DNA from: Candidatus Aminicenantes bacterium
Lineage (GTDB): Bacteria > Acidobacteriota > Aminicenantia > Aminicenantales > JAFGBC01
Direction of reading: 5' to 3'
Length of the DNA: 64,000 nucleotides
Assembly: GCA_963702005.1 (NCBI GenBank)
Contig: OY969696.1
Coordinates: 1,472,001 to 1,536,000 of the forward strand
The notes beneath the pieces were generated by a model, which had not been told where the DNA came from, did no database searches, and worked only from the letters and a program-made list of their open reading frames with translations. The first letter of the stretch is position 1. Each line of letters begins with the position of its first letter. Positions 43,954 to 64,000 of this stretch are shown here, one piece after another. Both the position numbers and the translations under genes were made by a program.

Positions 43954-43957
43954 TAAT

Positions 43958-45094: not shown

Positions 45095-45175
45095 ATCTCC
45101 ATAATAAGGGACGGTGAAAAATTATCCTTGACTTCTGGAAACGATTCGGATAATTTTTGGACTGAGGGGATTAAG

Positions 45176-45874: not shown

Positions 45875-45907
45875 GCCCGAACCCCAATTCGGCTTGTCAG
45901 AACGAAG

Positions 45908-46999: not shown

Positions 47000-47031
47000 C
47001 AGGAAAGCAATAATAGAGATAAGGAGGTTTC

Positions 47032-48279: not shown

Positions 48280-48282
48280 ACC

Positions 48283-49347
48283 ATGAAAACTTCTTTAGTG
48301 ACAATCCTAATATTTTTAATATGCTTTCCTGTTTTTATAGTAGGACAAACAAATCAAGAAGCAAACTCTAAAAAAGAGCCTGAGAAAAAGGGACAAGATT
48401 TTTTAGGCGCGATTAGTTTCGATCCCAGTCTTTCATCTAACTCGAGTGGGAAAAATATTCAGCTTATACTCGAAACCACAAAGCTGGACGCGAAGAGAGC
48501 AAAGGCGCAAATTGGATTTCAACAAGGCGATTCAATATTCAGTATTAAAATCGAAGGTCCAGTAGGAGCAAAAGCTGACCCAACTACTTGGGCGGATTTA
48601 AACGGACTAGCCAACTCTGTGGTCGCTGACATTGGCTTCTGCAATTATATTTGGCATCCTCGTGGCTCGATAGAGGATGCGATAAATCAATACCACAAGG
48701 ATCTCCTCGCACAGGGGATGACTGAAACCGAGTATCAGGAGCTACTTGAAAAAGTCCACGGCTTCAATAGTGATAATATACCCTATAAATATATTAAAAA
48801 CTTATTTGGAACGCCTCTGCAATGGGGCATGAGATTTAAAATTGGCCGCGAGAAATTCTCTTATCTCGATTCAGTTAATTATGATGAAAAGGATAAAGTA
48901 AAAACGAATTTTGCTATAGTCTGGTTCTATGGAATCGTTTTACCAGCCTCAAGCCTATACCTAGGGTTGAGTTATCGATATGAATCTGCTTTTAAAGCAG
49001 GAGATGCGCAAAAGATCAGTGTCCCTATTAAAGATGTTCCAGGAGCTCTTCGTAGTTATGAGTTGCCAATTGAAGAGCCAAAAAGCAAAATAGGCAGTAT
49101 CGGCCAGTTTGAAGCTCGATATTTCGTTTCCCCCCAATTCGCTTTGAACCCGAAAATCGCATATGACTTTAAAGCCAATGCCCTCGGGATAGAAATCCCC
49201 TTCTATTTCCTAACGAATACGGGAAAGGATCTCAAAAATCAGGAACAGGGTTTGAACGGAGGTATCTCTTTTGGCTGGCGTTCTGATACAAAAGATTTGG
49301 GCATAGCTTTATTTGTGGGAAACGTTTTCAATATATTCCGCGACTGA
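48283..49347 (+). CDS. Exported hypothetical protein, possibly beta-barrel
   Basis: AGGAG RBS; signal peptide; alternating aromatic beta-strand pattern. Confidence 0.65.
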   Translation: MKTSLVTILIFLICFPVFIVGQTNQEANSKKEPEKKGQDFLGAISFDPSLSSNSSGKNIQLILETTKLDAKRAKAQIGFQQGDSIFSIKIEGPVGAKADPTTWADLNGLANSVVADIGFCNYIWHPRGSIEDAINQYHKDLLAQGMTETEYQELLEKVHGFNSDNIPYKYIKNLFGTPLQWGMRFKIGREKFSYLDSVNYDEKDKVKTNFAIVWFYGIVLPASSLYLGLSYRYESAFKAGDAQKISVPIKDVPGALRSYELPIEEPKSKIGSIGQFEARYFVSPQFALNPKIAYDFKANALGIEIPFYFLTNTGKDLKNQEQGLNGGISFGWRSDTKDLGIALFVGNVFNIFRD

Positions 49348-49354
49348 CCCCGGG

Positions 49355-49532
49355 ATGAAATTCTACATCGTCATCGTCTCCTGCCCGCGCTGCGGATGGA
49401 TTCTTCCGGCCCATGACCGGAGCGATCCCAGACTCCACGACGCAACGTGTTTTGAACTGCGGGCTGGAGATCGAGATCGTCTTTGATCGGTTCGGGAATC
49501 TCAAGGAGGTCAAGCCGAAAACAATAAACTAG
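49355..49532 (+). pseudogene. Small Zn-ribbon protein with +1 frameshift
   Basis: CPRC...TC then LNCGLEIEIVFDRFGNLKEVK* if one T is removed from T4 at 49450-49453. Confidence 0.5.
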
Positions 49533-49540
49533 GGGGTTGC

Positions 49541-50923
49541 ATGAAAAAGAAAGCTTTATTTCTCGTCTTCGTCTTTCTTCTTCTCTCTCTTCCTTCGGAG
49601 GCCGTAAAGCTCGTCACCTGGAACCTGCTGAACTTCCCGGGATCCACGGGCGCCGCGCGCGAGGATGACTTCCGGCTGGTGATCAACAAGATCGCGCCCG
49701 ATATCCTGGTCGCCCAGGAGATGATCGATCTCACCGGCTGCAATCAGTTCCTCATTCAGGTGATGAACTTCACCATCCCCGGGAAGTACGCGGCCGCGCC
49801 TTTCTACGACAGTAGCGACACCGATAACGCGCTCTTCTACCGGAGAGCGACTATCACCTATCTTGGGAAGACCCAGATCAAAACACCTCTCCGGGACATC
49901 ACGGAATACGTCCTGAAAGTGAAGAGCGGGCCCGGGACGGGGACGACGTTTCGTGTCTACTCGATACACCTCAAAGCAGGATCCGAAGCAGCCGATAAGA
50001 CTGAGCGCACTGAGGAAGCGAAGAAACTCAGAAATCGTCTGAACGCGCTCTCCGTGAACACCCTGGCCCTTGCCTGCGGCGATCTCAACCTCTATACGAA
50101 CGATGAGGTCGCCTACCAGTACCTGGTTAACCACGACGCCCCCTACTACGCGCGGCTGAACGACCCCGTCCAGAAGCCCGGGAAGTGGCATGACGGATCC
50201 CAGTTCGCGCTGATTCATACCCAGTCGACCCGGACCACCCAGTTTGGCGGGGGCGCGTCGGGCGGCCTGGATGATCGCTTCGACTTTATCCTGATCTCGG
50301 ATCCGATGATGGCAAGCACGAAGTTGGGCTATGTCCAGGGGAGCTATAAGGCTTATGGGAATGATGGAAAGCATTTCAACAAGGCCGTCAACGCCGGCAC
50401 AAATTATGCCGTTGGTAAAGCCCAGGCCAATGCCCTGTGGGCGGCCTCTGATCATCTCCCGGTGATGGTGGAGCTCCTCCCCCAGTCTGGCGGGATCCCG
50501 AAGGCCCCGACCGGCCTGGTCGCCCCTTCGATCTCATCGACACAGATCCAGCTTTCCTGGAACGACAAGTCGAATAACGAGAAGGGCTTTAAGATCGAGC
50601 GGAAATCAACGGGCGACTGGGCCCAGATCTGCACGGTCCTGGCCAACACAGAGACCTATCTCAACGGGGGACTTTCCTCAGCTTACACCTACACTTATCG
50701 AGTTCGAGCGTACAACACGGACGGAGATTCAGAATATTCCAACGAAGCCTCCCGGAAGCCTGGCGAGGATATCACGGTCTACATCACGAACACCGGGACT
50801 AAATACCACCGGAGCAGCTGTCACTACCTCAGCTCGAGCAAGATCCCGATCAATCTGCTCGATGCAAAGGCACAGGGCTATACGCCGTGCTCGGTGTGCG
50901 ATCCGCCAACGAGCCATCGCTAG
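49541..50923 (+). CDS. Secreted endonuclease/exonuclease/phosphatase-family protein with FN3 and C-terminal Zn-binding domain
   Basis: Signal peptide; TWNL, VAQE, HLKA, GDLN, RFDFIL, SDHLPV; FN3 LSWND...YTYRVRAYN; TGTKYH..C...PCSVC. Confidence 0.88.
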   Translation: MKKKALFLVFVFLLLSLPSEAVKLVTWNLLNFPGSTGAAREDDFRLVINKIAPDILVAQEMIDLTGCNQFLIQVMNFTIPGKYAAAPFYDSSDTDNALFYRRATITYLGKTQIKTPLRDITEYVLKVKSGPGTGTTFRVYSIHLKAGSEAADKTERTEEAKKLRNRLNALSVNTLALACGDLNLYTNDEVAYQYLVNHDAPYYARLNDPVQKPGKWHDGSQFALIHTQSTRTTQFGGGASGGLDDRFDFILISDPMMASTKLGYVQGSYKAYGNDGKHFNKAVNAGTNYAVGKAQANALWAASDHLPVMVELLPQSGGIPKAPTGLVAPSISSTQIQLSWNDKSNNEKGFKIERKSTGDWAQICTVLANTETYLNGGLSSAYTYTYRVRAYNTDGDSEYSNEASRKPGEDITVYITNTGTKYHRSSCHYLSSSKIPINLLDAKAQGYTPCSVCDPPTSHR

Positions 50924-50945
50924 AAGTACAAATGGAGTGCAAAAA

Positions 50946-51500
50946 ATGAAAAATATATTCAAAAAAATAAAACAAACATTTAAATTAAATATATTGATTG
51001 GAGCGGTCTTCCTAGTAATCTTGATTGCAAATCTAATCTTTCTAATAAATATTCGAGACAACTACTCTCATATAAGCCAAGTATTAGATAAACGTTTCAG
51101 TCCCAATGAAGAAGATGCAATAACGGTTAAAGCCATATCTCCAATTCAATCCGATAAACAAAAAGTAAATGAAGCTTCACCTAAGGAGCTTTCTTCATCA
51201 CTCCAGACGCTTCCTCCAGCGAACAAAGGACGCACTATCCAAGAGAATTTCTTGAGCGTTTCTGTCCTATTATTTGGACTCTTAGTTTGTACTCTCCTTA
51301 CTATAGCTATGAAGAGCAAATCGGCTAAACTGTTAGAATCAACCTTTACAAAGCTCGTCGGCTTAACAGTTGTGATAACAGCAGGAGTATTCCTTATTTG
51401 TGCAGGCTATTCTCAATCTCAGATAGCAACCATGATGGGATTGCTTGGAACGATAGCAGGATATTTACTCGGTAAAGAAGTACGGAAGAGAACGTCATAA
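50946..51500 (+). CDS. Membrane protein, paralog A
   Basis: GRTIQENFLSVSVLLFGLL...AGYSQSQIATMMGLLGTIAGYLLGK. Confidence 0.75.
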   Translation: MKNIFKKIKQTFKLNILIGAVFLVILIANLIFLINIRDNYSHISQVLDKRFSPNEEDAITVKAISPIQSDKQKVNEASPKELSSSLQTLPPANKGRTIQENFLSVSVLLFGLLVCTLLTIAMKSKSAKLLESTFTKLVGLTVVITAGVFLICAGYSQSQIATMMGLLGTIAGYLLGKEVRKRTS

Positions 51501-51636
51501 AAAAGAAGCATAAAGGAGGCGCCCGGGGCCGGGGCCGCTAGCCCCCGGGGTATGATAGAAGCCAAAGGCGTAATTACGCCTCATTATGGATAGACGGATG
51601 AATGAGACTAATTTGCTCAATTTCAAAGGGGGATCT

Positions 51637-52179
51637 ATGAAATTATTTTTACTCGTTCTATTGGTTCTTATGGTTGTAGCGGCCGGGCTTTATGCCGACC
51701 ACAATCCCCAATTAAAACCTGAGAAGGCGCCAGAAGAAAAGCCAACGCCGAAGAAGCCAAAACTGACCACAGAGAAAACTGAACAAGTGCCCAGCCCATC
51801 AGAAATTCATGCGGCGGAGGTAGGGGAATATATGATGCCTGGTACAGTGGTGAAATCACAAGAAGAAGGCCAAATACAGGAGCCCCCGAAGAGCATCGGA
51901 CGCACTGCTCAGGAGAATTTTTTGAGTGTCTGTGTCCTTTTATTTGGGCTCTTATTTAGTGGTCTCTTAACTATGGTAGTTTTGAAGACTAGTCCAGCTA
52001 AGCCACTAGGGACAACCAACATTAAACTCTTCGGTTTAACGATTGTGATAACGGCCGGATTATTTCTTATTTGCGCCGGCTATTCTCAAAATCAGATCGC
52101 GCCAATGATTGGATTGCTTGGCTCAATAGCAGGATATATACTCGGAAAAGACGCGCCAAAGGAATCCGCAGAAAAATAG
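51637..52179 (+). CDS. Membrane protein, paralog B
   Basis: GRTAQENFLSVCVLLFGLL...AGYSQNQIAPMIGLLGSIAGYILGK. Confidence 0.75.
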   Translation: MKLFLLVLLVLMVVAAGLYADHNPQLKPEKAPEEKPTPKKPKLTTEKTEQVPSPSEIHAAEVGEYMMPGTVVKSQEEGQIQEPPKSIGRTAQENFLSVCVLLFGLLFSGLLTMVVLKTSPAKPLGTTNIKLFGLTIVITAGLFLICAGYSQNQIAPMIGLLGSIAGYILGKDAPKESAEK

Positions 52180-52294
52180 CGAGATGATAAATGACCCGGG
52201 TGGGCCCAAGTTGAGCCCAGGTCCCTGGTTTGAGATAGACGCTTAGCGCGGTGTCGCCTCAGATAGATAGACGTCCGAAGGGAGGTTTTGTGTC

Positions 52295-52471
52295 ATGAAA
52301 AATGCGTCTGAGATTGAGAGAATTCTTTCAAGGGTTCTTTTTGAGATTAACGAAATCAAGAAAATAATATCCCTTTCTAATATTTCTCGGCAGATAAAAC
52401 ATAACTTTGACCTAAAAATCGCTGAGGTAGAAAGACTAGTCAGAAACGCAAAAAAATTGATTGAAGAATGA
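52295..52471 (+). CDS. Small helical protein, 58 aa (below ORF-track cutoff)
   Basis: GGGAGG RBS; MKNASEIERILSRVLFE...LIEE*. Confidence 0.55.
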   Translation: MKNASEIERILSRVLFEINEIKKIISLSNISRQIKHNFDLKIAEVERLVRNAKKLIEE

Positions 52472-52751
52472 ATTGGCGATTTATTTAAATAGCAGTAGAA
52501 TCAGTCAAAGCAGGAGGAGATCATGCCCGATATCCTAGGACAGCAACAAAAAAATGAAATCATTAAAGCCCTAGAAAAGGCAAAAGCTACACAGCCTTGC
52601 CCGCGCTGTGGGAATAAAAAATTTGCTATAGTTGATGGCTATTTCACCCAGATGATACAGACAAAGCTAGGTATTTTAGTCTTCGGGGGGCCGAGCATCC
52701 CTTGTATAATAGCTGTCTGTGATCAATGTGGCTTCATGGCGCAGCATGCAC

Positions 52752-53357
52752 GAAAGCTTTACAGGCTGCCCCGTGGCTTGCCACGGGGTGGAATGTATGC
52801 CTTGCCGAGGGGGTGATCAGGGGGACCGGAAAGTCCCCCTGATCCACAAAGGCCCTTGCTCGGGAATATGGTAGAGTATATGGGTGACGCTGAAACGGAC
52901 GAGTCATTCGGTCTACGACACGTCCTACCATCTGGTCTGGTGTCCGAAGTACCGGAAGAAGATATTCGAGCGGGTGGAAGTCCGGGAACGAGCGAAACAG
53001 ATCGTGGGAGAGATTTGCGAATCGTACGATATTGAAATCATCGAGATGGAAATTACCGAAGATCATATTCATTTGCTAGTATCATTTCCGCCATCGCGAT
53101 CGATCGGGGAGGTCGTCAGGATCATAAAGAGCATGAGTGGGAGGGGGTTGTTTCGCGAGTTTGCGGGCTTGAAAAAGAAGCTATGGGGCGGGGAAGTGTG
53201 GGAGGACGGATATTTCGCAAGGACGGTCGGAGACCGGATGACGAGGGATGTGATCGCGAAGTACATCGTCAGTCACCGAGAACTGGAGCAAGGGCCTGCG
53301 CAGCTGGCCTTGAAGCTGCGCTCCTAATGCCCCGCGGCTTGCCGCGGGGATCTTTAC
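52752..53357 (+). mobile_element. IS200/IS605-family element, tnpA only
   Basis: Subterminal hairpins ccccgtggc-tt-gccacgggg (52769-52788) and ccccgcggc-tt-gccgcgggg (53330-53349); no tnpB. Confidence 0.88.
52884..53327 (+). CDS. tnpA: Y1 HUH transposase
   Basis: YHLVWCPKYR, DHIHLL (HUH), WEDGYFARTVG, KYI catalytic Tyr. Confidence 0.95.
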   Translation: MTLKRTSHSVYDTSYHLVWCPKYRKKIFERVEVRERAKQIVGEICESYDIEIIEMEITEDHIHLLVSFPPSRSIGEVVRIIKSMSGRGLFREFAGLKKKLWGGEVWEDGYFARTVGDRMTRDVIAKYIVSHRELEQGPAQLALKLRS

Positions 53358-53430
53358 TTGGAACGCTCGGACTCATGTCCCCAGTTTCAGAACCGATGCC
53401 TACTGCGATGCCACAAGAGGGAGAAAATAA

Positions 53431-53913
53431 ATGAAAAGTCCCTCAGGAAAAATAACAACTAAATTTCTTAATGAAGATATCCAAAAACGTATCGCTCAAG
53501 AAACAAATATTTATTTCAATTTGGGACAAAACGCGATTGTTACTACTGAAGATAAACTTAAAATCGTACTAATGACGTGCTTACCTAAAATAGAATCACG
53601 TAGGGCTTGGATAGCGCCCACTGGTATTCTTGTTGCTATTGTCACAGCTATTGTCACAGCGAGTTTTAAAGATTTTCTTTTCATTGATGCTGCTACTTTG
53701 AAAGCATTGTTTTATTTTTTTGCCTTGACTTGTCTAGGCTGGCTCGTAATGACCTTCATTAAAGTGGAAAAAGCACCATCTGTTGAAACCATTTTATTGG
53801 ATATGAAGAGATCTTCGTCAGCAATTACAGGTATTAAAGGTCTCCTTCTATATGATCCACGTATAAATGGATACATTCCCTTTAATTCTGTATCAGAAAG
53901 AGAAATTCTATAA
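53431..53913 (+). CDS. Two-TM hypothetical membrane protein
   Basis: TEDKLKI...WIAPTGILVAIV plus a second TM helix. Confidence 0.7.
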   Translation: MKSPSGKITTKFLNEDIQKRIAQETNIYFNLGQNAIVTTEDKLKIVLMTCLPKIESRRAWIAPTGILVAIVTAIVTASFKDFLFIDAATLKALFYFFALTCLGWLVMTFIKVEKAPSVETILLDMKRSSSAITGIKGLLLYDPRINGYIPFNSVSEREIL

Positions 53914-54161: not shown

Positions 54162-55145
54162 CTATAGCTCGTCCAGGGCCTTGAACTCCTCCATCGGAAG
54201 CGCGGCGAGTTTTCCACCCAGCCGTTCCAGTTCCACGCTTTTCTCCCAGGTTTCCTCTTTCTGAGCGGCCAGAGTCAGGGCGTTGGCGATTCCGTACTTG
54301 TCGTATTCAGGCTCCGCACCGAAGGCCATCAGAATATTCGCTTTTTGGACTTCGCTGAGCTTGTACTGGTCGACCACGTTCTGGATCACTCGCTGAGGAT
54401 TCCTGATCTTGATTTCCGTGGATTCCCTCATCATCAGAACAATCTCGCCGAATCTGTTGAACAGCTCTCGGATTGAGCGCCGAAGGGAGAGATATATGAT
54501 CTCATCTGATATCTCGTCGCCGTTCCCAATATGGATTTCCCGCGTGACCAGTTCTTCGACGATCATCCCGTTTGAGCATTTGACCCGGAACATTCTCGGT
54601 TCTACCCGAAGCGCCTTGTGGCCGGTTTCGGAATTCGTGAGAAAGAGTCCGCCCATGATCAGATCGTCTTTGTGCCGGACGAAGTCCCTGAGCTTTGCGC
54701 TTTTCACTTTGATGTTCATCTCGATCTCCGAGAGATAGCAATCCTCGATCTCGGCGTTATGAGCTTGGAGCTCGTTCAGGGCACAATAGAGAACGTCCAG
54801 GTGGTCGATCACCCGATAGCGGTCGCTGAGGAACGCTCGGACAGAATCACCCTGGCCGCGAATGAAAACATCTTTTCCGTTCTTTTTCAGCCAGGCGTTG
54901 ACGTTCTCGACAAGAAGTTCAGGCGCCGATTCCTCCATCTTGTGGTAGTACTTGAGCGGGATTTCAAGTTTCTCCGCAAACTGGGTGTGGCAGGGTTTAG
55001 AGATGGAGAATAATTCTTCGCCCGGTAGCCTGAGAATGGGTGTATTCTCAGCCAGAGCCATCGCGATCTGCGCAGCGTTCAGTTTCTTGTCCCATTTTAG
55101 GGGCTTTTGTTGCTCCAATTCTTTGATTAAAGACCTAATCTGCAT
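54162..55145 (-). CDS. DUF932-like protein
   Basis: RAFLSDRYRVIDH, LTNSETG, FRVKCSNGMI. Confidence 0.8.
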   Translation of the reverse strand: MQIRSLIKELEQQKPLKWDKKLNAAQIAMALAENTPILRLPGEELFSISKPCHTQFAEKLEIPLKYYHKMEESAPELLVENVNAWLKKNGKDVFIRGQGDSVRAFLSDRYRVIDHLDVLYCALNELQAHNAEIEDCYLSEIEMNIKVKSAKLRDFVRHKDDLIMGGLFLTNSETGHKALRVEPRMFRVKCSNGMIVEELVTREIHIGNGDEISDEIIYLSLRRSIRELFNRFGEIVLMMRESTEIKIRNPQRVIQNVVDQYKLSEVQKANILMAFGAEPEYDKYGIANALTLAAQKEETWEKSVELERLGGKLAALPMEEFKALDEL

Positions 55146-55212
55146 AAAGACCTCCTCTTAAAGAAGTGTAGGCAGAGAGGGTATATGTGAATGGAAAGAG
55201 CAATAAGGTACT

Positions 55213-55722
55213 TTAGCGTCGAATGTCAGAATAAAGCCTCCAATTTTCGATTAGAAGTTTCATTCTCTTGGGCTTAGGGATTCCCTTGAACACCATCAGC
55301 CCTTGTGTCCCGGCTGATTCGATTATCAAATCTCCGTAACCCAGGATTCGCCCAAGAATTCCATAGCTGCAGACAATATCTTCGATATCCTTAAGATGAA
55401 TAGACATATATCGCTTTCCGATAATTGCTCTTTCCTTAATAAGTCTATAATTCGTCAGATAGAGTCGATTGAATTTCCAATCCAGATAAAAGATGAGGCT
55501 TATAAAAAATAGGACGAATGAGGCTGCAGCATAGCAGTAGTTTTTCAACGCACCAGCGATAAATCCTAAAATCGGGCAAGCGAAGAAATAGTACAGGAAG
55601 AAAAATAAGAAGATTTGACTCATGGAAACAAGAAGGAACAGCCAATGGGGATTGGATTGGAAAACGATCTGTTCATTCGGTAAAAGAAATTTATTTGATT
55701 TAGAAAGATAATTGTTGACCAT
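55213..55722 (-). CDS. Bacterial PH-domain membrane protein
   Basis: PHW, two TMs, LYLTNYRLI, GRILGYGDLIIESAG. Confidence 0.8.
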   Translation of the reverse strand: MVNNYLSKSNKFLLPNEQIVFQSNPHWLFLLVSMSQIFLFFFLYYFFACPILGFIAGALKNYCYAAASFVLFFISLIFYLDWKFNRLYLTNYRLIKERAIIGKRYMSIHLKDIEDIVCSYGILGRILGYGDLIIESAGTQGLMVFKGIPKPKRMKLLIENWRLYSDIRR

Positions 55723-57019
55723 GAAAATTATCGGAATGATACGGCTGAGAAGCGAATTGTCGTTCTATAACGCCTCTCGGCTTTGTATATTTCTTTCTTG
55801 AAAAATCGATTATTTCCTCTTTATGAGAAGTATTGATTTCTCTGAGCCGTATGGTAACGGCGCTGAATGGCCGCGAAGTCACGCCGTCAATCATGAGCTT
55901 GAGGCAGATATGGAAATTGGGGAGGTTAATTAAGTCGGCTTCTTCAAATACGGGCTCAAATTCCTGAGCAAGATATTTTGCATCCTCAGCCCCGATTCTG
56001 AAGGATATGATCGTCCCGACATTCCCGAAGATCGCCGCCCTTATTTTTTCGTCCAATTGCTCGATATACTGATGGGCGAGAATAAGGTTCAAGCCGTACT
56101 TCCGGGATTCGGACATAATATCGGCAAAGGAGAGGGTTATGAAGCTGTGGATTTCGTCCACATAAAGATAGAACGGCGTTCTTTTCTCTTCCAGTAAATC
56201 TGCCCGGCTCAGCGCGGCTAACTGGATTTTGGTAAGAACCAGAGCGCCCAAAAGAGAGCAGTTGTCTTCACCGATCTTTCCTTTGGCGAGATTGACGATG
56301 AGAATCTTTCCTTCATCCATGGCTCTGCGGACATCGAAGGTATTTTCTTTCTGGCCGACTATGTTTCTAAGCGGAATGCTGACCAGGAATTGGCCGATTT
56401 TATTGAGTACGGGCGAAATCGCTTCTGACCGCAGCCAGGCGGAATATTTCTCAAACTCTGAGAGCCAGAATTCTCTGACCTGGGGATGGGTGATGTAATT
56501 GAGGACATTCCTTCTGAAATCCTTATCCAAGAGAAGCTTGGGCATGTCGAGAAGCGTACTATTTGGATATTCGAGAAGCGTGAGCAGGGCGTGCCGGAGA
56601 ATATGTTCCAATCTCGGCCCCCAGGATTCAGACCAAATCTTTTTGAAAGTCGAGATGATTCCCGAAGCCACAAGATGATGAAAATCTTTGGGGACTTTTT
56701 CCAGAGGATTAAATGCTATCGGATATTCAAGATCAGCGGGATTGAAGTAGATGACATCCTTAATTCTTTTTTTAGGAACGTAGTCCAATATTTCTTCCGC
56801 TATATCGCCGTGAGGATCGATAAGAGCTAAGCCACAGCCGTGCTTGATATCAGAGATCGCCATGTTCTCCATTAAGCTTGATTTTCCAGTGCCGGTCTTG
56901 CCGATGATATACATATGGCCTCTACGGTTTTTCTCTTTGATGCCGAAGATTCTTTTAATATCCCTGTAGTCGGTCACGGCAAAGGGGGTGATGCGATTGT
57001 TCTTATGAGAATCAGTCAT
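55700..57019 (-). CDS. VirD4/TrwB/HerA-like P-loop ATPase
   Basis: HMYIIGKTGTGKS, IDPHGD, FNPL, YLYVDE, ESRKYG...AHQY..QL, GNVGT. Confidence 0.85.
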   Translation of the reverse strand: MTDSHKNNRITPFAVTDYRDIKRIFGIKEKNRRGHMYIIGKTGTGKSSLMENMAISDIKHGCGLALIDPHGDIAEEILDYVPKKRIKDVIYFNPADLEYPIAFNPLEKVPKDFHHLVASGIISTFKKIWSESWGPRLEHILRHALLTLLEYPNSTLLDMPKLLLDKDFRRNVLNYITHPQVREFWLSEFEKYSAWLRSEAISPVLNKIGQFLVSIPLRNIVGQKENTFDVRRAMDEGKILIVNLAKGKIGEDNCSLLGALVLTKIQLAALSRADLLEEKRTPFYLYVDEIHSFITLSFADIMSESRKYGLNLILAHQYIEQLDEKIRAAIFGNVGTIISFRIGAEDAKYLAQEFEPVFEEADLINLPNFHICLKLMIDGVTSRPFSAVTIRLREINTSHKEEIIDFSRKKYTKPRGVIERQFASQPYHSDNFHGQQLSF

Positions 57020-57159
57020 ATATTTTCAGCATAAGCCGGCAAAATATTGAATAAAAGACAGGAAATTTCCACTTTTTCGGCAATTTCTCCCGTCTTGTAT
57101 GTCTCTGTCCGTGCGCTAAGCTTGAAGTAGAACTTTAAAATTTAAAGGAGTAAGGAGAA

Positions 57160-57534
57160 ATGAAAGACAAAGCAAGACGGCTGGAACTCAGAACTGCGGA
57201 CGGCAAGGTTATCCTCGTTCTCTATCTCTCCGAGGAGATAGCTTTAGAGGATCAACCGAAGGCGAAGGAAAGCCCGAAACCGGACGCCGGTAAGTCCAAG
57301 CCTCAAACGAGCGCTCCGTCATCCGAGAATCCTCCGATGACAGATGCCCAGAAGCGCTACCTTTTCAGAATCATGGCTGAGAAAGGCTACGAAAACGACA
57401 AAGGCTACGCCAAGCTGAAGGAGCTTTTCCAGGTCGATTCTCTGAAAGAGGTCACGAAGCTTGAAGCTTCGCGGATGATCGAACGGCTTCTCGACGAAGC
57501 AAAAGGCGAAAACCATGACGCCGTACCTTTCTAG
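57160..57534 (+). CDS. Hypothetical protein
   Basis: AAGGAG RBS; MTDAQKRYLF...TKLEASRMIERL. Confidence 0.7.
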   Translation: MKDKARRLELRTADGKVILVLYLSEEIALEDQPKAKESPKPDAGKSKPQTSAPSSENPPMTDAQKRYLFRIMAEKGYENDKGYAKLKELFQVDSLKEVTKLEASRMIERLLDEAKGENHDAVPF

Positions 57535-58282
57535 CTCTCAGATCAATCTTTATCTGCTTTGCGGTCTGAAGTACAAATTCCAGTACATTGACGAGATCCC
57601 GAAACGCTTCAAATCTTCAGGATTGGCTTTTGGCAGCGCTATCCATTCGGCTCTTTCCTGGTATCACAAGCAGACGATGAACGGAAACGGAGTGACGATT
57701 GACCGGTTGCACAAGATTTTCGACGCTGACTGGTACAGCCTGAAAACGGAAAACGAGATTCGCTTCAAAGAAGGGGAAGAAGAGATGAAGCTCGTCGTCC
57801 TGGGAAAAGAGATGCTGGCTCAGTATTTTGATCTGCCGAGAAAAAAAATCAAAGGTACGGAGATTCCGTTTTCTGTCCCGCTTATCAATCCTGAAAACAG
57901 CAAGTGCGCAGCCATCGAGCTTGAAGGCGTGATCGATTTGATCGAGGAGGACGACACCATCACGGAATTCAAGACTTCGGCCCAGACCATGGACTCTCAG
58001 GAGCTTGGAAACCACGTCCAGCTGACAATCTACAGCTACGCTTTCGAAAGGATCAGCCACAAGCCGCCCAAGTCCTTAAAAATCGTCAACTTCGTCAAAT
58101 CCAAGAAGCCGAAGATGATTCAGATGGACACGAATCGAGACAACGACGACTATCAGCGGCTCTACTTCCTGGCCGGACAGATCCTCAAAGGAATTCAGCA
58201 GCGCATCTTTTTCCCGAGAACCGGATTCCTTTGCAAAGACTGCGAGTACGCGGAGAACTGCAAAATGTGGAAGGGGAACTAG
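57515..58282 (+). CDS. PD-(D/E)XK nuclease (RecB/AddB/Cas4-like, four Cys)
   Basis: SSSQINLYLLC, FGSAIH, GVIDLI...EFKT, QLTIY, CKDCEYAENC. Confidence 0.88.
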   Translation: MTPYLSSSQINLYLLCGLKYKFQYIDEIPKRFKSSGLAFGSAIHSALSWYHKQTMNGNGVTIDRLHKIFDADWYSLKTENEIRFKEGEEEMKLVVLGKEMLAQYFDLPRKKIKGTEIPFSVPLINPENSKCAAIELEGVIDLIEEDDTITEFKTSAQTMDSQELGNHVQLTIYSYAFERISHKPPKSLKIVNFVKSKKPKMIQMDTNRDNDDYQRLYFLAGQILKGIQQRIFFPRTGFLCKDCEYAENCKMWKGN

Positions 58283-58304
58283 CTCATTTTCTTCCAACAA
58301 AGCA

Positions 58305-58333
58305 AGGAAGCAGGCAATCCTGCTTCCTTTTAA
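58305..58333 (+). terminator. Rho-independent terminator
   Basis: aaggaagcagg-caat-cctgcttcctt followed by T's. Confidence 0.75.
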
Positions 58334-58406
58334 TATTTTACAGGGTTTTCTAAATGTGCTAACATTTAAAAAAAGGGTTGATTATTAATTTTGGGCATTA
58401 ATAAAC

Positions 58407-61298
58407 ATGGCACAAGAAATGCTCTTCCCAGAAGGATCAAAATGGAGAAAATGGGACCTTCATATTCATAGTCCACTTTCTATACTTAATAATAAATATC
58501 CAAAATCTGCCAGTGGCAAGCCGGACTGGGGAGGCTTCATAGATAAACTAGAACGCTCGGACCTAGCTGTAATTGGAATTACAGACTATTTTTCTATCGA
58601 AGGCTATAAAAAGGTACTGGATCTTAAGAATAATGAGAAGAGATTATCGAACATATTCACCGTGCTTCCGAATATTGAATTTAGACTCAACAGTGTATTG
58701 TCTAGTAAAAAAAACGGGAGACATCCTCGAAGATTAAACTTCCATGTGATTTTTTCAGATGAGGTCTCTTGCCGAGACATCGAGGAGCATTTTTTACACG
58801 ATCTTCTTTTTTATTATGAAGGGAACCCTCAAGATAAAGACGAGAGACGAAAATTGAAATTATCTAATCTTAGGGAATTGGGGGCGAAACTCATATCTCA
58901 ACATAGCGGATTTGAAGGAAAGGATGCGCTTGAAGTTGGCGCAACGTGTGCAGTGGTCAACCATGAAGATATAACGGAAATTCTGAGTGGGGATAGCAGA
59001 TTTAAAGGGAAGTACATAATAGTTTTTCCTGAAGACCTATTCAGCCTGATAGATTGGGATGGACAGGATCACCATATAAGAAAAGGGGTGCTTCAGAAAT
59101 CGGATATGGTTTTTTCTTCTTCTCAAAAAACGATTCAGTGGTGCCTTGGGAAACCACCTTATCAGGAAGGCGAAAAGAAGTTTATTGAGGAGTTTAAGAC
59201 CCTGAAACCATGTGTTCACGGCTCTGACGCGCATCAAATTGAGGAAATTGCGGCTCCTTGTGCAAAAAGAGGAGAGCCGGATCATAAATGCGGAGAGTCT
59301 TCTTCAAAGTGCGAGATGAGGTACTGCTGGATCAAAGCTGATCCGATATTTGAGGGATTGAGACAGTTGCTTTATGAACCAGAAGAAAGAGTTAAGATTC
59401 AAGAAGATGACCCCACGCCTTCAAGAAGCAATATAACGCTGTCAAAAATCACCGTGCCGGGATCAGAAATTAATGAAGAGCTATCAATAGCTAAAACGGA
59501 AATAGATCTAAATATAGGCTTAGTGGCTGTTGCAGGAGGAAAGGGCACTGGGAAAACAGCCTTTGTTGATTTGATTGCGAATTGCTTTCAAGATCGCGTT
59601 AATACAGACGACAAGAACTCATTTGTGAAAAGAATAGTTGACCAAAAGCCTGATCTGGATGTTGAACTAGACTTTAAAAATAATATAATTTTCAAGAAAA
59701 AGATTAGGGATGATTCTTATTTCCAGGAGGGAGAGATATTATATATTGCCCAGGGCGAGCTCGAGCATTACATCGGAGAAGGATCTGATCTAGACAAGTA
59801 TGTAAATAATTTAATATTTCTTAATCCTAAGATCATAAATTCACTACAAAAATACGAATACTCGAAGATGGAAGCCGATCTCAAGGAAATAGAAGCGAAG
59901 ATACAAAAGAAGTCTGAGTCAATAGAGCGGCTAGAACAAGAAACTGTAAGTGCTGTTCTACGAGACGCCGAAATAAAAGAAAAACAGCTTCAGAATTCCC
60001 TGAGAGATATAAATCAGCGATTAGCTGAATTAGAAAAAAAGCTTAGTATCGATAAGGTAAAAATCGCCAAAGAAAAACAGGGAAGAATGGCTGAGTTAAA
60101 AACGAAAAAGGAATTATATGTTGGATTGAAAGAACAAATTGGATTAGCGATTAGTTTTTTTGATGAAGAATTAGTTGGATTAAATACGATAATAAGAAGG
60201 ATAAATAACATCCTCGAATCATTGGGGATCCCCGAAAAATATCCTGAGATTAATTATGCTGATCGCAGCAAATTGATAGAGCGGTCAAACCAAACCGATG
60301 GAATAGTTACGAAAATTATTGGAGAAATCGAAGTAATTCAAAAAGAGATAAACAAGTATGAGATTGGCATTCAAGATCATGCATCTCTGCTCAACAAGAA
60401 GAAAGACATAGAAACCTCAATAGAGAAAAGCAATACGAGGCTAAAGAACCTTGCTTTTAAGAAGACAAAGTTGTCTGAAGATATATTACAGAGAAAGAAC
60501 CTCTTCAAGGATATGATCATTGCAGTAGTGGCTCTAAAAACTAAATATGCAGAAGTTATAAAATTATTTTCCTCTCAAAAAGCCATAGTACTCTCCGATA
60601 TTGAATTCATCGCCGAGATGACGTTTGACGCTGAAGGTGTCTTGAAAAACGCAGAGGATGTATTAGATAACAGAAAGGTGATTGTCTACCCTGAAGGAGA
60701 TGGTTGGGTTTTTAAAAGAATGATAGAAATATATGGTCAAATAACGGCCGGAGATACAACAAAGGCTGACGAATTGGTTGAGGAAGTTGAGCGTCTAAAT
60801 AATGAATTGAAACCTAAAATTAAATCCTCAAGTGCAGTCAATGTGGGAGATTTCTATAAATTCTTATATACGAATTATTTAAATGTTCTTCCTGTCGTTA
60901 AGTATAAAAATACCAGGATCAATAAATTGTCGCTTGGACAAAAGGCGACAGTGCTTATAAAAATATATTTAGCTGAAGGAGATAATCCAATTATTATAGA
61001 TTCACATGATGAACACCTGGATAATGCGTATATCATGGAAGAATTAACAGGGTCGATTAGAGAAGCTAAAAAATATAGACAAGTGATCATGGTTTCAAAC
61101 AATGGCAACATAGTGGTAAATAGTGATGCGGAACAATTGATAATAGCGGAGCGGAATGATGAAGGAGAAATATCTTATATAGCTGGGTCAATCGAGAATC
61201 CTACCATACGAGAGAAAGCGATAAAAGTCTTAGAAGGCGGGCCGGAGGCATTTAAGAAACGACAGCAAAAGTATCGTATCTCTGGCTCAGCATTCTAA
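58407..61298 (+). CDS. PHP phosphoesterase + ABC/SMC-like ATPase (Ppl/TrlF-like)
   Basis: WRKWDLHIHSP, GITDY, HGSDAH, WIKADP; GGKGTGKT; coiled coil; LSLGQ, IIIDSHDEHLDN. Confidence 0.85.
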   Translation: MAQEMLFPEGSKWRKWDLHIHSPLSILNNKYPKSASGKPDWGGFIDKLERSDLAVIGITDYFSIEGYKKVLDLKNNEKRLSNIFTVLPNIEFRLNSVLSSKKNGRHPRRLNFHVIFSDEVSCRDIEEHFLHDLLFYYEGNPQDKDERRKLKLSNLRELGAKLISQHSGFEGKDALEVGATCAVVNHEDITEILSGDSRFKGKYIIVFPEDLFSLIDWDGQDHHIRKGVLQKSDMVFSSSQKTIQWCLGKPPYQEGEKKFIEEFKTLKPCVHGSDAHQIEEIAAPCAKRGEPDHKCGESSSKCEMRYCWIKADPIFEGLRQLLYEPEERVKIQEDDPTPSRSNITLSKITVPGSEINEELSIAKTEIDLNIGLVAVAGGKGTGKTAFVDLIANCFQDRVNTDDKNSFVKRIVDQKPDLDVELDFKNNIIFKKKIRDDSYFQEGEILYIAQGELEHYIGEGSDLDKYVNNLIFLNPKIINSLQKYEYSKMEADLKEIEAKIQKKSESIERLEQETVSAVLRDAEIKEKQLQNSLRDINQRLAELEKKLSIDKVKIAKEKQGRMAELKTKKELYVGLKEQIGLAISFFDEELVGLNTIIRRINNILESLGIPEKYPEINYADRSKLIERSNQTDGIVTKIIGEIEVIQKEINKYEIGIQDHASLLNKKKDIETSIEKSNTRLKNLAFKKTKLSEDILQRKNLFKDMIIAVVALKTKYAEVIKLFSSQKAIVLSDIEFIAEMTFDAEGVLKNAEDVLDNRKVIVYPEGDGWVFKRMIEIYGQITAGDTTKADELVEEVERLNNELKPKIKSSSAVNVGDFYKFLYTNYLNVLPVVKYKNTRINKLSLGQKATVLIKIYLAEGDNPIIIDSHDEHLDNAYIMEELTGSIREAKKYRQVIMVSNNGNIVVNSDAEQLIIAERNDEGEISYIAGSIENPTIREKAIKVLEGGPEAFKKRQQKYRISGSAF

Positions 61299-61417
61299 AT
61301 CTAAATTTGTCTTTGAAATCATCATCGGCAACTCATCTTGCGACTCAAATATGATCTATCTATGGCTGTATTCCGGGTCTTTGGCCTTCGATGTGAAAAC
61401 TTTCTCAGCATTGTCGG

Positions 61418-61990
61418 TCATAACAGGTCAAACAACAAGCTTGGTGCGATATCTGCTCCTTCTCCAAAATACGGGCATAGCTCACATTCGGGACATGTCG
61501 ACATATCTCTATCTTTACTTCCGCAAGATGTAGCAATTCTTTTCTTTATCTCTAGAGCCCTCAGATTCCTTAGGCCTTGGAATTCCTTGAATTTACGATA
61601 ACCTTTTGCTGCACGGCGATACCATTTCACGAAATCTTCGACGTCGATGTGGATAATAGTCTGGGGTAACTTTTTCTTAATATCCCTTGGCGGCTTGAAG
61701 GGGCTCAGAACGACCAAAACATTTGCGCCCCTAAAACGCGGGTCTTTATGATGTCCATGCTTTATATATAATTCACAGGTTTTTTCAACTTCTACGATAA
61801 CCTCCATGCCTTCAAATACCGCTTTGAAGTCTGGCCCAAATTTAAAAGGTCCCTTAATCTTAGAAAAACCTAATTTTTTATAATTCTCTCTAACATATTC
61901 ATTAATCCAATATTCCCTAATGCCACCTTTCTCAGCACGTTCGTGTGCAGTTGGCTTTGTAGGTTGACTCGCAGCTTTTTCTTGCTTCAT
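61418..61990 (-). CDS. Restriction-endonuclease-like hypothetical protein
   Basis: GPDFKAVFEGMEVIVEVEK (PD-ExE-like); C-terminal Cys cluster. Confidence 0.5.
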   Translation of the reverse strand: MKQEKAASQPTKPTAHERAEKGGIREYWINEYVRENYKKLGFSKIKGPFKFGPDFKAVFEGMEVIVEVEKTCELYIKHGHHKDPRFRGANVLVVLSPFKPPRDIKKKLPQTIIHIDVEDFVKWYRRAAKGYRKFKEFQGLRNLRALEIKKRIATSCGSKDRDMSTCPECELCPYFGEGADIAPSLLFDLL

Positions 61991-62161
61991 GCAGCACCCT
62001 TAACTGATTTTCTCTCCATTGCTTCGCCATTGTCAATTCCTTTACTGAGTCTTTCTATGTGCTAGATTAAAAGTATACCAACCAGTCAATCCTTATCAAT
62101 TGATAAATTCTTGGCTCAAATCTATTATTGACTCCGGCTTTCAGTTGATACATCCAGCGCT

Positions 62162-62275
62162 ATGAACTGTCTCCTCTACGCCCGTGTCTCCACGGACAAA
62201 CATGTTCAAAAAGACCTATCTATCCTGCCCCCGATCGATATGAGGGAACACTTTGCTGAAGAGTCCGGCCTTTAA
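62162..62275 (+). pseudogene. Serine recombinase N-terminal remnant
   Basis: MNCLLYARVSTDKHVQKDLSI then stop after 37 aa. Confidence 0.7.
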
Positions 62276-62324
62276 TCACCTCTTCAAATTCGGGATCATA
62301 GCCTCTTTATTAGTCTCGAAAAAG

Positions 62325-62386
62325 GTTCTAACGTCCTCTACTGCGGTGTACTAAAATTGCCGAAATAGGCAAAAATTCCCTTCTTG
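62325..62386. repeat. att-like direct repeat, copy 1
   Basis: gttctaacgtcctctactgcggtgtactaaaattgccgaaataggcaaaaattcccttcttg. Confidence 0.85.
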
Positions 62387-62511
62387 TGTGAAGCATTATT
62401 TTAAATGAGTTAAAATGCGAGAATCACGCTACAACAGATAGATATTGGGAGGGCGGTAGTTTCCCCGTTTCCCCCTTTACTTTGTATTTATTTGTTATAT
62501 AATCAAAATAT

Positions 62512-63039
62512 ATGAGCCGATTAGAACAATTTCTATTATTTGTCCTAGACAGAGCTCATAGGATCGGAATTAAAGACCTATCCCGTTTTCAGTTATTCAA
62601 GATATCCTATATTATTCAGGTACTGTCTTTAAAATACGCTGGTAAAGAATTTATCCCGAATTTAGTATTCGTTAGGCATAAACATGGACCGATATCTACG
62701 GATATATATCATGCGATAGATGATTTATATAAGAAAAAATATATTAGTAGAGAAATTAGTAAGAAAGAAGACTATGAATTTGCCCGTCATGGCCATAAAT
62801 TAATCAAGAAAATCCCCAGATTGAACTTTAGTAAAGGGGAAACTGTTTTTTTGGATAATTTTCTGTCGGAGTTATTGCCGTTATCTCAAAATAAGTTGAA
62901 ACAATACGCTTACACAACCGAACCGATGAAAGAAATCTTGAAAAAGGAAAAAGGCGAGATTAAGACAGGAGTAGTTATTGATTTTTCAACCGTTATTGTT
63001 GATCCAGATGTCGTAAATAGCTATGCTGACGAATTATGA
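62512..63039 (+). CDS. Panacea/SocA (DUF4065)-like antitoxin
   Basis: QLFKISY, FVRHKHGPIS, LKQYAYTTEPM. Confidence 0.7.
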   Translation: MSRLEQFLLFVLDRAHRIGIKDLSRFQLFKISYIIQVLSLKYAGKEFIPNLVFVRHKHGPISTDIYHAIDDLYKKKYISREISKKEDYEFARHGHKLIKKIPRLNFSKGETVFLDNFLSELLPLSQNKLKQYAYTTEPMKEILKKEKGEIKTGVVIDFSTVIVDPDVVNSYADEL

Positions 63040-63461
63040 GTTTTTCTGTCGGCGACATTCCCTTTTTTAAAGAATACCAGTTTACTGATACTGGACGATT
63101 CGCCCCTCATTTTGGGCTAGTACTTCTACCAGAAACCGCGACTAAATATCAGAATAGTCTTTTGTGTTGTGTAATTACCTCACGTGAACCTAAAAGAATC
63201 AAATGGAGTTTATTGTTGGAATGTTCCAAATATAGTTGTTTTTCGAAAAATAGTCATGCTTGTTTCGATAGAAAGGACCTCGTTTCTAAGAGCGGCCTCG
63301 GAGATAATCCTCAACCTAAAGCGCGACTGTGCGTGGATGATCTTAAGAGAGCTTATAAAATATTAAGAAGCTCTCTTTTTGTCATAAGAGATATTGCGAA
63401 TGATCCTTATATGCGAGGCGTAATTATTTATGAGTGGAAGAAGGCACTGGGGAAAAACTAG
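63036..63461 (+). CDS. Putative toxin, possibly PemK/MazF-like fold
   Basis: ATGA-coupled to the antitoxin; VGDI...FTD...PHFGLVL...CVITS. Confidence 0.5.
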   Translation: MSFSVGDIPFFKEYQFTDTGRFAPHFGLVLLPETATKYQNSLLCCVITSREPKRIKWSLLLECSKYSCFSKNSHACFDRKDLVSKSGLGDNPQPKARLCVDDLKRAYKILRSSLFVIRDIANDPYMRGVIIYEWKKALGKN

Positions 63462-63516
63462 TTGAATTTTGTCCCAGGATTACGCATCGGACTCTCTAAC
63501 GTTTGATTTGAAATAA

Positions 63517-63577
63517 GTTCTAACGTCCTCCACGGTGGTGTACAAAATTGCCGAAACAATCAAAAATACCCGCCTTG
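63517..63577. repeat. att-like direct repeat, copy 2
   Basis: gttctaacgtcctccacggtggtgtacaaaattgccgaaacaatcaaaaatacccgccttg. Confidence 0.85.
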
Positions 63578-63668
63578 CTACGGAGAGTAGGTTTTTATAA
63601 TTAATAAGTAAGATTAAGAAAATCGTTTGTGCTTAATTATAAGAAATAGGGTGTGGATAAATAACCTC

Positions 63669-63711
63669 TTGACAATATAAGTTACATAAGATATCATTCC
63701 CAATATGGGAA
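63669..63711 (+). promoter_or_regulatory. sigma70 promoter plus palindromic operator of higB
   Basis: TTGACA-17 nt-TATCAT followed by palindrome TTCCCAATATGGGAA. Confidence 0.7.
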
Positions 63712-63747
63712 CATATGCTAATGTAATATATTGTTCCACGGTAAGAA

Positions 63748-64000
63748 ATGAAACTAATAGGAAAATCAATATTAGACGAATTCAAACAAAAGCATGCCGA
63801 TGCTCGACCACAAATTGATTCTTGGGAAGCAGAAGTTAAGGAAGCAGAATGGAAAACCCCGCAGGATCTCAAAAACAGGTATCCCAAGGCTAGTATTTTA
63901 AGTAAGCAGCGTGTTGTTTTTAATATTTATGGAAATAAATATAGATTGCTAGCACTAGTCACCTATAAGACAGGAGTAGTATTGGTAATTAAAATAGGAA
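63748..64000 (+). CDS. higB: HigB-family toxin, truncated by the window end
   Basis: WEAEVKEAEWKTPQDLKNRYPKASIL...RVVFNIYGNKYRL. Confidence 0.88.
   Translation, partial: MKLIGKSILDEFKQKHADARPQIDSWEAEVKEAEWKTPQDLKNRYPKASILSKQRVVFNIYGNKYRLLALVTYKTGVVLVIKIG

Follow-up and report, generated by a model that had tools for sequence, protein, structure and literature searches.

The stretch of DNA analysed here comprises 64,000 nucleotides of Candidatus Aminicenantes bacterium (contig OY969696.1, positions 1,472,001-1,536,000) and is called the window in the following. Close to its right end two direct repeats separate small gene cassettes, and part of each repeat resembles the 3′ end of a gene for a large serine recombinase, LSR-2, which is located past the window end. 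Positions beyond 64,000 are given in the same numbering as window-equivalent positions. The locus of this genome is termed L009 among the loci compared. Sites are named in the direction of the recombinase gene: all share the right arm, X, and to its left stands either Z, which is coding sequence of the recombinase, or Y, which is non-coding and specific to a clade. An X-bearing copy outside a recombinase gene (Y-X) is called an orphan. The array consists of LSR-2, cassette 2, site 2, cassette 1, site 1 with an ancestral-type tail and a recombinase stub, in this order. In ascending coordinates the features are:

57515-58331, plus strand: PD-(D/E)XK nuclease gene, edge of the conserved backbone and far border of the variable hotspot, where homology to relatives resumes
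58332-62161, no strand assigned: distal part of the hotspot with a Ppl-like PHP plus AAA gene (58407-61298, plus strand) and a 190-aa gene (61418-61990, minus strand)
62162-62275, plus strand: YARVST stub, 37 codons from the 5′ end of an unrelated serine recombinase gene, convergent with and abutting the tail of site 1
62318-62386, minus strand: orphan site 1, last of the array, with X arm 62318-62351 (copy of the 3′-terminal arm of the recombinase) and Y arm 62353-62386
62387-63509, plus strand: cassette 1 with a promoter-like site, a Panacea-domain gene and an overlapping 141-aa gene
63510-63577, minus strand: orphan site 2 with X arm 63510-63543 and Y arm 63544-63577
63578 to window-equivalent 67034 (63578-64000 within the window), plus strand: cassette 2, predicted PD-Lambda-2 components A, B and C and a sce7726-family gene
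window-equivalent 67035-68648, minus strand: LSR-2, large serine recombinase of 537 aa with the Pfam domains Resolvase, Recombinase and Zn_ribbon_recom

The repeat unit of about 69 nt is present at 62318-62386 and 63510-63577 with about 83% identity. The two copies share 84% over 38 nt in one half (62318-62355 and 63510-63547) and 82% over 34 nt in the other (62353-62386 and 63544-63577), and the spacing of 1192 and 1191 nt for the two halves points to a single 1-nt indel. When copy 1 was searched against the whole 4.31-Mb genome, copy 2 was recovered at E=1e-12. A preliminary description of this DNA had noted two imperfect repeats bracketing a unit of ~1.19 kb, which on the minus strand read YT(A/T)VEDVRT(F/Y)F and soon reach a stop; all of this was confirmed for both copies. 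Copy 1 reads YTAVEDVRTFF followed by 13 further codons and a stop (YTAVEDVRTFFETNKEAMIPNLKR-stop), with another stop codon directly upstream, while copy 2 reads ...ILYTTVEDVRTYF followed by 9 further codons and a stop (...ILYTTVEDVRTYFKSNVRESDA-stop). A 19-nt degenerate core pattern was found in 0 of 400 other genomes of the host's phylum and in 0 reversed controls. The repeats are therefore not a chance similarity, and the same count means that no close host relatives were available for comparing cassette content.

Both copies share a 34-nt non-coding Y arm, which on the minus strand of site 1 forms a short hairpin with a T run (terminator-like hairpin at 62372-62357). When the three arms (X, Y and Z) were inspected by eye, neither dyad symmetry nor a half-site motif common to them emerged consistently, and no half-sites were assigned. 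The Y arm also has two weak inverted matches, at 57055-57086 (E 1.7) and at window-equivalent 72434-72451 (E 0.5), which were taken as chance. An Rfam scan of 62100-63800 gave 0 matches at E≤1 for the repeats, and ARAGORN detected 0 tRNA genes at this locus and 0 in the 18 array or close-relative loci scanned. With these two results the repeats were ruled out as tRNA genes, as tRNA fragments of the tycheposon type and as known RNAs; X only resembles a T-loop motif and is not a fragment of a tRNA gene.

A third, partial copy (88% over 32 nt, E=1.4e-4) is located at genome position 1539073-1539104 (window-equivalent 67073-67104). It lies within the last codons of LSR-2, at a distance of 3.5 kb from the window end. 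The preliminary description had proposed to look beyond 64 kb for a minus-strand serine recombinase ending in ...YTxVEDVRT, and LSR-2 with its copy of the repeat arm is indeed what is found there. The third copy matches the other two only in the arm that lies left on the forward strand (X, 62320-62351); right of ...GGTGTAC it continues as recombinase coding sequence (Z), and Y was not found in it. The X block of site 2 is identical to the LSR-2 copy at 30 of 32 positions. The C-terminal end of LSR-2 contains ...WYTTVEDVRTFY..., also given as ...SWYTTVEDVRTFYEKLPQSEEVFV, and reads in full ...SQFLSWYTTVEDVRTFYEKLPQSEEVFV.

Domain matches of LSR-2 (Resolvase, E 2.4e-21; Recombinase, E 4.8e-10; Zn_ribbon_recom, E 1.6e-10) describe a large serine recombinase, with ..YCRKST.. 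at the N-terminus, a resolvase catalytic domain carrying the serine nucleophile motif, and Recombinase and zinc-ribbon domains in a C-terminal extension of >300 aa. Its scores remain below the NCBIfam cut-offs for XisF (119 bits vs 375), CcrB (89 vs 900), CcrA (76 vs 700) and CcrC (63 vs 900). Among 7999 candidates scored, 4690 proteins belong to the LSR-2 family at E≤0.001. A motif of the type W..VEDVRTF(F/Y) occurs within the last 70 residues of 98 of 121 sequences (the best 120 matches and LSR-2 itself), and the tails following it are unrelated. A minority of the relatives end in peptides which, judged by eye, read as the complement of a tRNA 3′ end.

For comparison, 80 metagenome loci and 19 genome-contig loci of relatives were scanned for X by a fuzzy motif and an nhmmer profile of X. 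After five duplicate contigs had been dropped and L059 had been reclassified (no recombinase adjoins its X), 46 loci with X inside a recombinase gene were left. Directly upstream of LSR-2 and conserved together with it lies a 73-aa ORF of no known family (window-equivalent 68713-68934, minus strand; L009 6713-6934). Small ORFs of this kind (55-73 aa) also occur at L021 13604-13774, L045 15051-15218 and L094 9756-9950, and in L021 and L045 repeat-bounded cassettes begin with a paralogue (35-54% identical). The ORF is a candidate for a regulator or directionality factor.

The X arm encodes ..VEDVRTF.. and at the same time carries GTT(A/C)GAAC, which is similar to a tRNA T-loop. Wobble positions within X are nearly invariant in 46 unique recombinase copies (GTT in 46/46, (A/C)GA in 44/46, TTT in 40/46, GAG in 37/46), compared to mostly 0.1-0.7 bits at the third positions of the 30 codons upstream of X. 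Because synonymous positions are near-invariant, X is a DNA site: it is constrained as DNA and not merely as protein. A second stretch with near-invariant wobble positions was seen in the 46 loci at codons -27 to -24 from the V of VEDVRT, ~75 nt upstream of X. It reads CTCGAACC, encodes LEP, resembles both GTT(A/C)GAAC of X and the tRNA T-loop, and might be an accessory site.

The natural partner of X became apparent from 15 distinct relatives which adjoin a tRNA gene on the opposite strand (L044, L057, L059, L067, L068, L074, L076, L078, L087, L088, L093, L095, L101, L105, L109). The left junction of L059 consists of a T-rich flank, a 6-nt core at the CCA end of the tRNA, and X, and its right junction of the recombinase, the same 6-nt core and tRNA-Gln. 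The L093 recombinase shares 67% identity with LSR-2; here X is found 3 kb upstream of the recombinase gene, the end of which adjoins tRNA-Tyr. From these junctions it follows that the 3′ end of the recombinase gene overlaps an attachment site, with X as its element-side arm and a tRNA 3′ end as its natural partner. An attP/attB pair is visible in relatives (with the 6-nt core in L059, at tRNA-Tyr in L093) but was not seen for LSR-2 itself, which is in the unrecombined configuration. Half-sites of attP and attB are known to be offset. GTT(A/C)GAAC of X is positioned a few bases further from the core than the T-loop region of the tRNA partner, as counted on the locus of this genome and on L014; this displacement fits such an offset and does not prove it.

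Orphan counts were based on the 35 of the 46 loci that have at least 1.5 kb of sequence downstream. Thirteen of these carry one or two extra copies of X in the same orientation, 1.2-5.4 kb downstream (this genome, L011, L015, L021, L025, L036, L040, L045, L064, L075, L083, L091 and L097). Beyond these thirteen, L014 has a diverged second orphan and L022 a decayed one at the position of site 2. Orphans of close relatives have the same Y arm as the copies in the window. Other Y arms occur in L064, in L045 and L083, and in L097, each with a hairpin and common within an array or clade. The block of X, tail and stub found at site 1 is kept in L024, L025, L075 and L014. The X block of an orphan is on average 88% identical to the recombinase copy of its own locus and 75% to those of other loci, and for 8 of 15 orphans no other locus provides an equally good match.

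Since the arms on the left of the forward strand (X) code for the C-terminal peptide conserved in the family, the repeats could be thought of as remnants of decayed recombinase genes left by tandem elements. We regard this explanation, as well as mere chance similarity, as very improbable and disfavour both. Local alignment of the Y arms with 200 nt of recombinase 3′ coding sequence gave z≤1.4 for 10 of 10 orphans, so that no recombinase-like sequence precedes X in any of them and orphans as decayed recombinase ends were ruled out. Furthermore, tblastn detected no second recombinase fragment of the LSR-2 family in the array. Chance is excluded by the copy match and the pattern counts given above.

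Between the recombinase and a conserved backbone lies a variable hotspot, whose defence and toxin-antitoxin cassettes are set apart by the orphan sites. When all metagenome loci were compared with window-equivalent 36-97 kb by blastn, homology extended over LSR-2 and the small upstream ORF and ended at 67061-67071, on the tail side of X. It resumed at window position 58331 in nine loci (L011, L015, L021, L025, L036, L039, L040, L058, L075). The segment in between has a length of 8.7 kb here (58332-67034) and of 3.6-7.0 kb in the relatives and differs among loci. Indeed, seven recombinases with at least 86% identity (this one, L011, L014, L015, L021, L022 and L075) are followed by six different first cassettes. 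Cassette content in related genomes had been named in the preliminary description as a further point to compare, and the relatives display the same architecture with different cassettes.

Cassette 1 contains a promoter-like site at 62476-62503 (consensus scan), a gene for a Panacea-domain antitoxin-like protein at 62512-63039 (Pfam SocA_Panacea, E 2.7e-9, 38.4 bits vs a cut-off of 25.7) and, overlapping with it, the 141-aa gene at 63036-63461, which has no Pfam, PADLOC or NCBIfam match and encodes a putative toxin. The two-gene Panacea operon reported earlier is thus present; the antitoxin side of the pair is recognised by its family, and the partner falls into no recognised toxin family. In cassette 2 a promoter-like site at 63669-63697 (11 of 12 positions matching, consensus scan) precedes a gene starting at 63748, the product of which matches HigB_toxin (Pfam, E 1.8e-27). 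The preliminary description had taken it for a higB gene with its own promoter and both cassettes for toxin-antitoxin units. Family and promoter-like site agree with this view, but the gene is not part of a simple higBA pair. It is at the same time component A of PD-Lambda-2, for which PADLOC found all three components in order on one strand (A, E 1.5e-39; B, E 4.1e-141; C, E 1.2e-40), with B, C and the sce7726-family gene located beyond the window end. Cassette 2 is therefore a predicted three-gene PD-Lambda-2 anti-phage system, and the label of a toxin-antitoxin cassette does not hold for it.

In this genome and its relatives, sequence matches assign mostly defence-like functions to the cassettes, which comprise several genes and 1.2-5.4 kb. 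Examples are a CBASS cyclase with a two-transmembrane (2TM) effector in L025, PDC-S54 in L015, a GajB-like helicase in L021, Mrr and Schlafen-like genes in L083, and Dcm-Vsr with a HATPase gene in L011. The same PD-Lambda-2 cassette as here (cassette 2) also adjoins the recombinase in L022 (86% identical to LSR-2) and in L050, and it is inverted in L049; the recombinases of L049 and L050 are only 58-61% identical to LSR-2. The Ppl-like gene of 963 aa and the convergent 190-aa gene lie beyond the stub and have no detectable bounding repeat here. A cassette bounded by repeats in L045 is made up of a Ppl gene (885 aa) and a 181-aa gene. In 11 arrays, 30 ORFs of at least 80 aa are located between recombinase and last orphan; 23 of them are encoded on the opposite strand and face the recombinase.

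Several observations connect orphan sites with recombinase termini of other genomes. The P0004 recombinase, 86% identical to LSR-2, actually has the tail of site 1 (ETNKEAMIPNLKR) as its C-terminus. In L024 the block of X, tail and stub directly follows the recombinase with 91% identity over 191 nt, which is an empty state of the array. Likewise, X and tail of the L091 orphan match the recombinase terminus of L011. Units of X plus tail thus occur as recombinase terminus or as orphan in different genomes. Over 4465 pairs, tail similarity and core identity correlate with r=0.27 only; 19 pairs have unrelated tails with cores that are at least 80% identical, and 22 pairs have similar tails with cores of at most 70% identity. 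Recombinase tails are therefore uncoupled from the phylogeny of the recombinase core. The tail type xNxEAxIPxLK is found on the last orphan in this genome, L011, L025 and L036, as expected if new cassettes enter beside the recombinase and push older termini outward. The earlier view of the repeats as recombination sites that double as swappable recombinase C-termini is borne out as far as sites and tails match recombinase ends elsewhere and tails are exchanged (copy 1 tail ends the recombinase in P0004 and L024); that the recombinase drives the exchange is what we infer from these data.

Breakpoints were located in assembled contigs of relatives from other samples, not in reads of this strain. 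A 3.8-kb contig from sequencing run X2 contains cassette 2 with 74 differences over ~3,470 nt and, exactly at the X/Z boundary (L009 5104), proceeds with two bases, the Y arm and then unrelated DNA instead of the recombinase. A contig of run X8 shows the same switch at this boundary. Contigs of runs X1 and X6 diverge exactly at the outer edge of site 2, left of window position 63511 (L009 1511). Such contigs provide the most direct evidence for exchange at the sites. Seven contigs lose homology at window position 62161 (L009 161), the start of the stub. Contig joints connecting L009 214 to 5069 and 386 to 5072 rest on 31-34 letters and are weak hints only.

Taken together, the repeats may be orphan recombination sites of LSR-2, whose own attachment site overlaps its last codons, and we assign a probability of roughly 0.55 to this reading. 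In this reading LSR-2 would recombine its own terminal site with Y-X sites, so that cassettes enter and leave beside LSR-2 and its last codons are exchanged each time. In this process the partner would be a Y-X site on a circular cassette, and recombination would insert the cassette next to the recombinase gene. The old X plus tail would be pushed outward to become an orphan, leaving the recombinase with a different tail of ~10-15 residues at its C-terminus. Cassettes would be excised again through recombination between direct sites. Movement of the cassettes by LSR-2 is thus suggested by the arrangement of the sequences, and recombinase-driven exchange can be called a well supported interpretation, with canonical accretion via alternative attL sites, which would lead to the same arrangement, as the main rival.

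A number of observations weigh against this reading. No orphan was detectable in 22 of the 35 loci, yet hotspots vary there too. The orphan beside the same PD-Lambda-2 cassette in L022 has decayed, so orphans are not always maintained. In L049 the PD-Lambda-2 cassette is inverted and has no orphan, which directional site-specific insertion would not bring about. In 5 of 15 orphans, several other recombinase copies match the X block at least as well as the one of the own locus does; this fits a foreign origin and also old relics. Furthermore, no sequencing run searched contained more than 32% of the sampled words, and all runs compared were assembled contigs.

The first three of these observations would also be expected at a passive hotspot, at which turnover proceeds via homologous recombination in the flanks (recombinase 3′ end, PD-(D/E)XK nuclease gene) or via illegitimate events and the repeats are decaying footprints with no present activity. 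Identical X blocks of 30-36 nt within a locus could then come from gene conversion. We consider a passive hotspot improbable, as it leaves unexplained why X copies with clade-specific Y arms arose repeatedly in recombinase lineages with 47-92% identity, why a breakpoint is placed exactly at the X/Z boundary, and why displaced units of X plus tail match the recombinase termini of other genomes.

The reaction assumed for LSR-2 raises a further difficulty. According to the abstracts of 10.1101/2025.05.02.651858 and PMC5737554, large serine integrases carry out attP x attB recombination but show no activity on the sites produced by it, and a reaction of Z-X with Y-X is for this reason not canonical. 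Canonical accretion needs only attP x attB and attL x attR. Here, the orphans are attL-type junctions (left arm of host or cassette plus X), several of which stand in direct orientation at a tRNA gene. Excision via an inner attL would drop a cassette beside the regenerated attB, excision via an outer attL would pick it up, and the array would represent the order of the excised form, fixed inside the larger comM island. Orphans are built exactly like the true attL of L059, L074 and L093 (T-rich or hairpin flank, core, X), and close relatives such as L014 and P0007 are located at tRNA-like ends.

The L014 locus (2731-13197) is instructive in this respect. Its recombinase is 87% identical to LSR-2, and the tail is replaced by a ~35-nt fragment resembling a tRNA 3′ end; no tRNA match at E≤1, no ARAGORN gene and no full tRNA were found there, only this 3′ fragment. 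Behind it come another large serine recombinase, which is unrelated (24% identical), then a cassette with a Dam methylase and finally two Y-X orphans, and the order attR-like junction, 5.9 kb, Y-X site fits accretion. Accretion and cis-mobilizable remnants are established for integrative elements according to the available text of PMC5704250 and 10.1101/2020.12.28.424599. Nevertheless, LSR-2-clade recombinases have backbone on both sides in nine loci, i.e. they have not been integrated by this site. Y arms are conserved within recombinase clades and arrays, unlike random host flanks, and the tRNA-integrated relatives examined have a single attL. The origin of the first inner attL is left unexplained as well. 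Accretion is thus unlikely in our view, while being clearly a stronger competitor to exchange by LSR-2 than the passive hotspot.

A wider extension of the LSR-2 reading is tentative, and we would put its odds below even. A clade of tRNA-targeting large serine integrases may have turned into a resident, integron-like platform for cassette capture based on a serine recombinase, in which insertion takes place in the last codons of the own gene, each capture rewrites the tail and leaves the old one behind as a site-bearing orphan, and cassettes with a clade-matched Y-X site move between distant phyla (Chloroflexota, Nitrospirota and Gemmatimonadota, by our own assignment).

The nearest known systems are the SCCmec (staphylococcal cassette chromosome) and ECC (Enterococcus cassette chromosome) islands, followed by accretion, cis-mobilizable elements (CIMEs) and tycheposons. 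In SCC islands units lacking a recombinase are stacked and moved in trans. As far as the accessible part of PMC6222049 describes them, SCCmec and ECC have large serine recombinases and ~50-bp direct repeats with the rlmH 3′ end; repeats with a gene 3′ end, variable cargo between them and an insertion that supplies a new 3′ end are likewise features of the array here. The site-bearing 3′ end, however, belongs to the recombinase gene itself rather than to rlmH, LSR-2 is far below the Ccr cut-offs listed above, its relatives target tRNA 3′ ends, and the array is inside another mobile island instead of at a chromosomal locus.

Integrative elements with accretion and CIMEs (PMC5704250) and successive integrations at tRNA genes in tycheposons (10.1101/2020.12.28.424599) are similar, in so far as these sources could be accessed, in that stacked site-specific integrations leave att-flanked segments without a recombinase, tRNA 3′ ends are targeted and the cargo serves defence or niche adaptation. 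Those systems mostly use tyrosine integrases, and their repeat is a partial tRNA or target-gene end, whereas the repeat here is the element-side arm that also encodes the recombinase C-terminus, with no tRNA fragment in the window array. The stacking of cassettes thus appears akin to that of SCC-like or accretion-type systems, and the new feature would be the site in the recombinase's own 3′ end, with the element-side arm as repeat.

The preliminary description had drawn a parallel to integrons lacking attC and IntI. Cassettes are indeed stacked beside a recombinase gene, the newest presumably nearest to it, and their orientation is mostly uniform (the 23 of 30 ORFs mentioned above). Defence systems also occur as integron cassettes, according to the available text of 10.1101/2024.07.02.601686. 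Unlike in integrons, a serine recombinase and not a tyrosine recombinase of the IntI type stands beside the array; the only nearby Phage_integrase match (window-equivalent 71229-71825) belongs to the backbone and does not adjoin the array. There is no structured site of the attC type, the repeats being conserved in sequence and the Y arm having only a weak hairpin of 4-5 bp. Since each cassette contains its own promoter-like sites (consensus scan) instead of relying on a common promoter, the parallel holds as an analogy only.

Variable defence loci between backbone genes and beside an integrase gene are also known from P4-like satellites, prophages and conjugative elements. To our knowledge these hotspots have not been described as partitioned by copies of the integrase's own att arm. 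A paper of 2026 links small serine recombinases to defence genes and, in its accessible part, describes no sites or arrays. A literature search, with subscription journals and supplements outside its scope, returned no arrays in which cassettes are delimited by copies of the terminal site of the serine recombinase itself.

If LSR-2 does move the cassettes, integrons would be joined by a second route through which bacteria collect and rearrange anti-phage systems at a dedicated site. This platform would be based on a serine recombinase and be spread over very distant sediment and groundwater bacteria, and a VEDVRTF-coding arm with GTT(A/C)GAAC would provide a sequence signature for new defence cassettes. 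LSR-2 would also be a natural large serine recombinase acting beyond a strict attP/attB pair, which bears on directionality control in genome-engineering enzymes. Even under canonical accretion, the locus documents attL-type sites that let elements drop and pick up cargo.

The YARVST stub, which the preliminary description had placed as a recombinase stub left of copy 1, is present at 62162-62275; it is a separate conserved relic and not the acting recombinase. It always abuts an ancestral-type tail, and homology between loci stops at its start codon. Further stubs are found at L024 4998-5108, L075 1799-1909 and L014 13086-13196, and L094 has a 61-codon version upstream of the recombinase on the same strand (9463-9648).

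LSR-2 and the repeats are internal to an island that interrupts comM. The GC content of the window falls from ~0.61 to 0.36-0.49 at ~38 kb, and the low-GC stretch extends to about window-equivalent 95 kb (genome GC 0.604). The 5′ part of comM occupies 36497-37576 (Mg_chelatase, E 6.9e-77), while its 3′ part begins at ~window-equivalent 93.2 kb. The left junction is formed by a second recombinase gene:

37518-39023, minus strand: LSR-1, a different large serine recombinase of 501 aa, at the left island junction in comM

The last eight codons of LSR-1 are derived from comM DNA, with CCCTG as core. Excision of the island would let the LSR-1 frame read on, without a frameshift, into an ORF of 147 aa at the opposite island end (window-equivalent 92789-93232, minus strand; L010 10789-11232), which has two HTH_3 domains (E 4.7e-22). 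In its excised form LSR-1 would therefore carry a DNA-binding extension at the C-terminus that the integrated form lacks.

Among the backbone ORFs scanned (54162-58282 and window-equivalent 69-84 kb) no relaxase was found. The left backbone part, common to relatives, encodes DUF932, a bacterial PH-domain protein, a TraD/TrwB-like coupling protein, DUF3072 and the PD-(D/E)XK nuclease. A short tyrosine-integrase-like gene, a helix-turn-helix (HTH) gene, a RuvC-like gene and a branched-chain amino-acid ABC transporter are located past LSR-2. Cargo of the island at 39555-53913 includes an ion-channel gene, an endonuclease/FN3 protein and an IS200-type transposase (52884-53327; Y1_Tnp, E 5e-40), as well as two radical-SAM genes and a gene of the metallo-beta-lactamase fold at 42490-46999.

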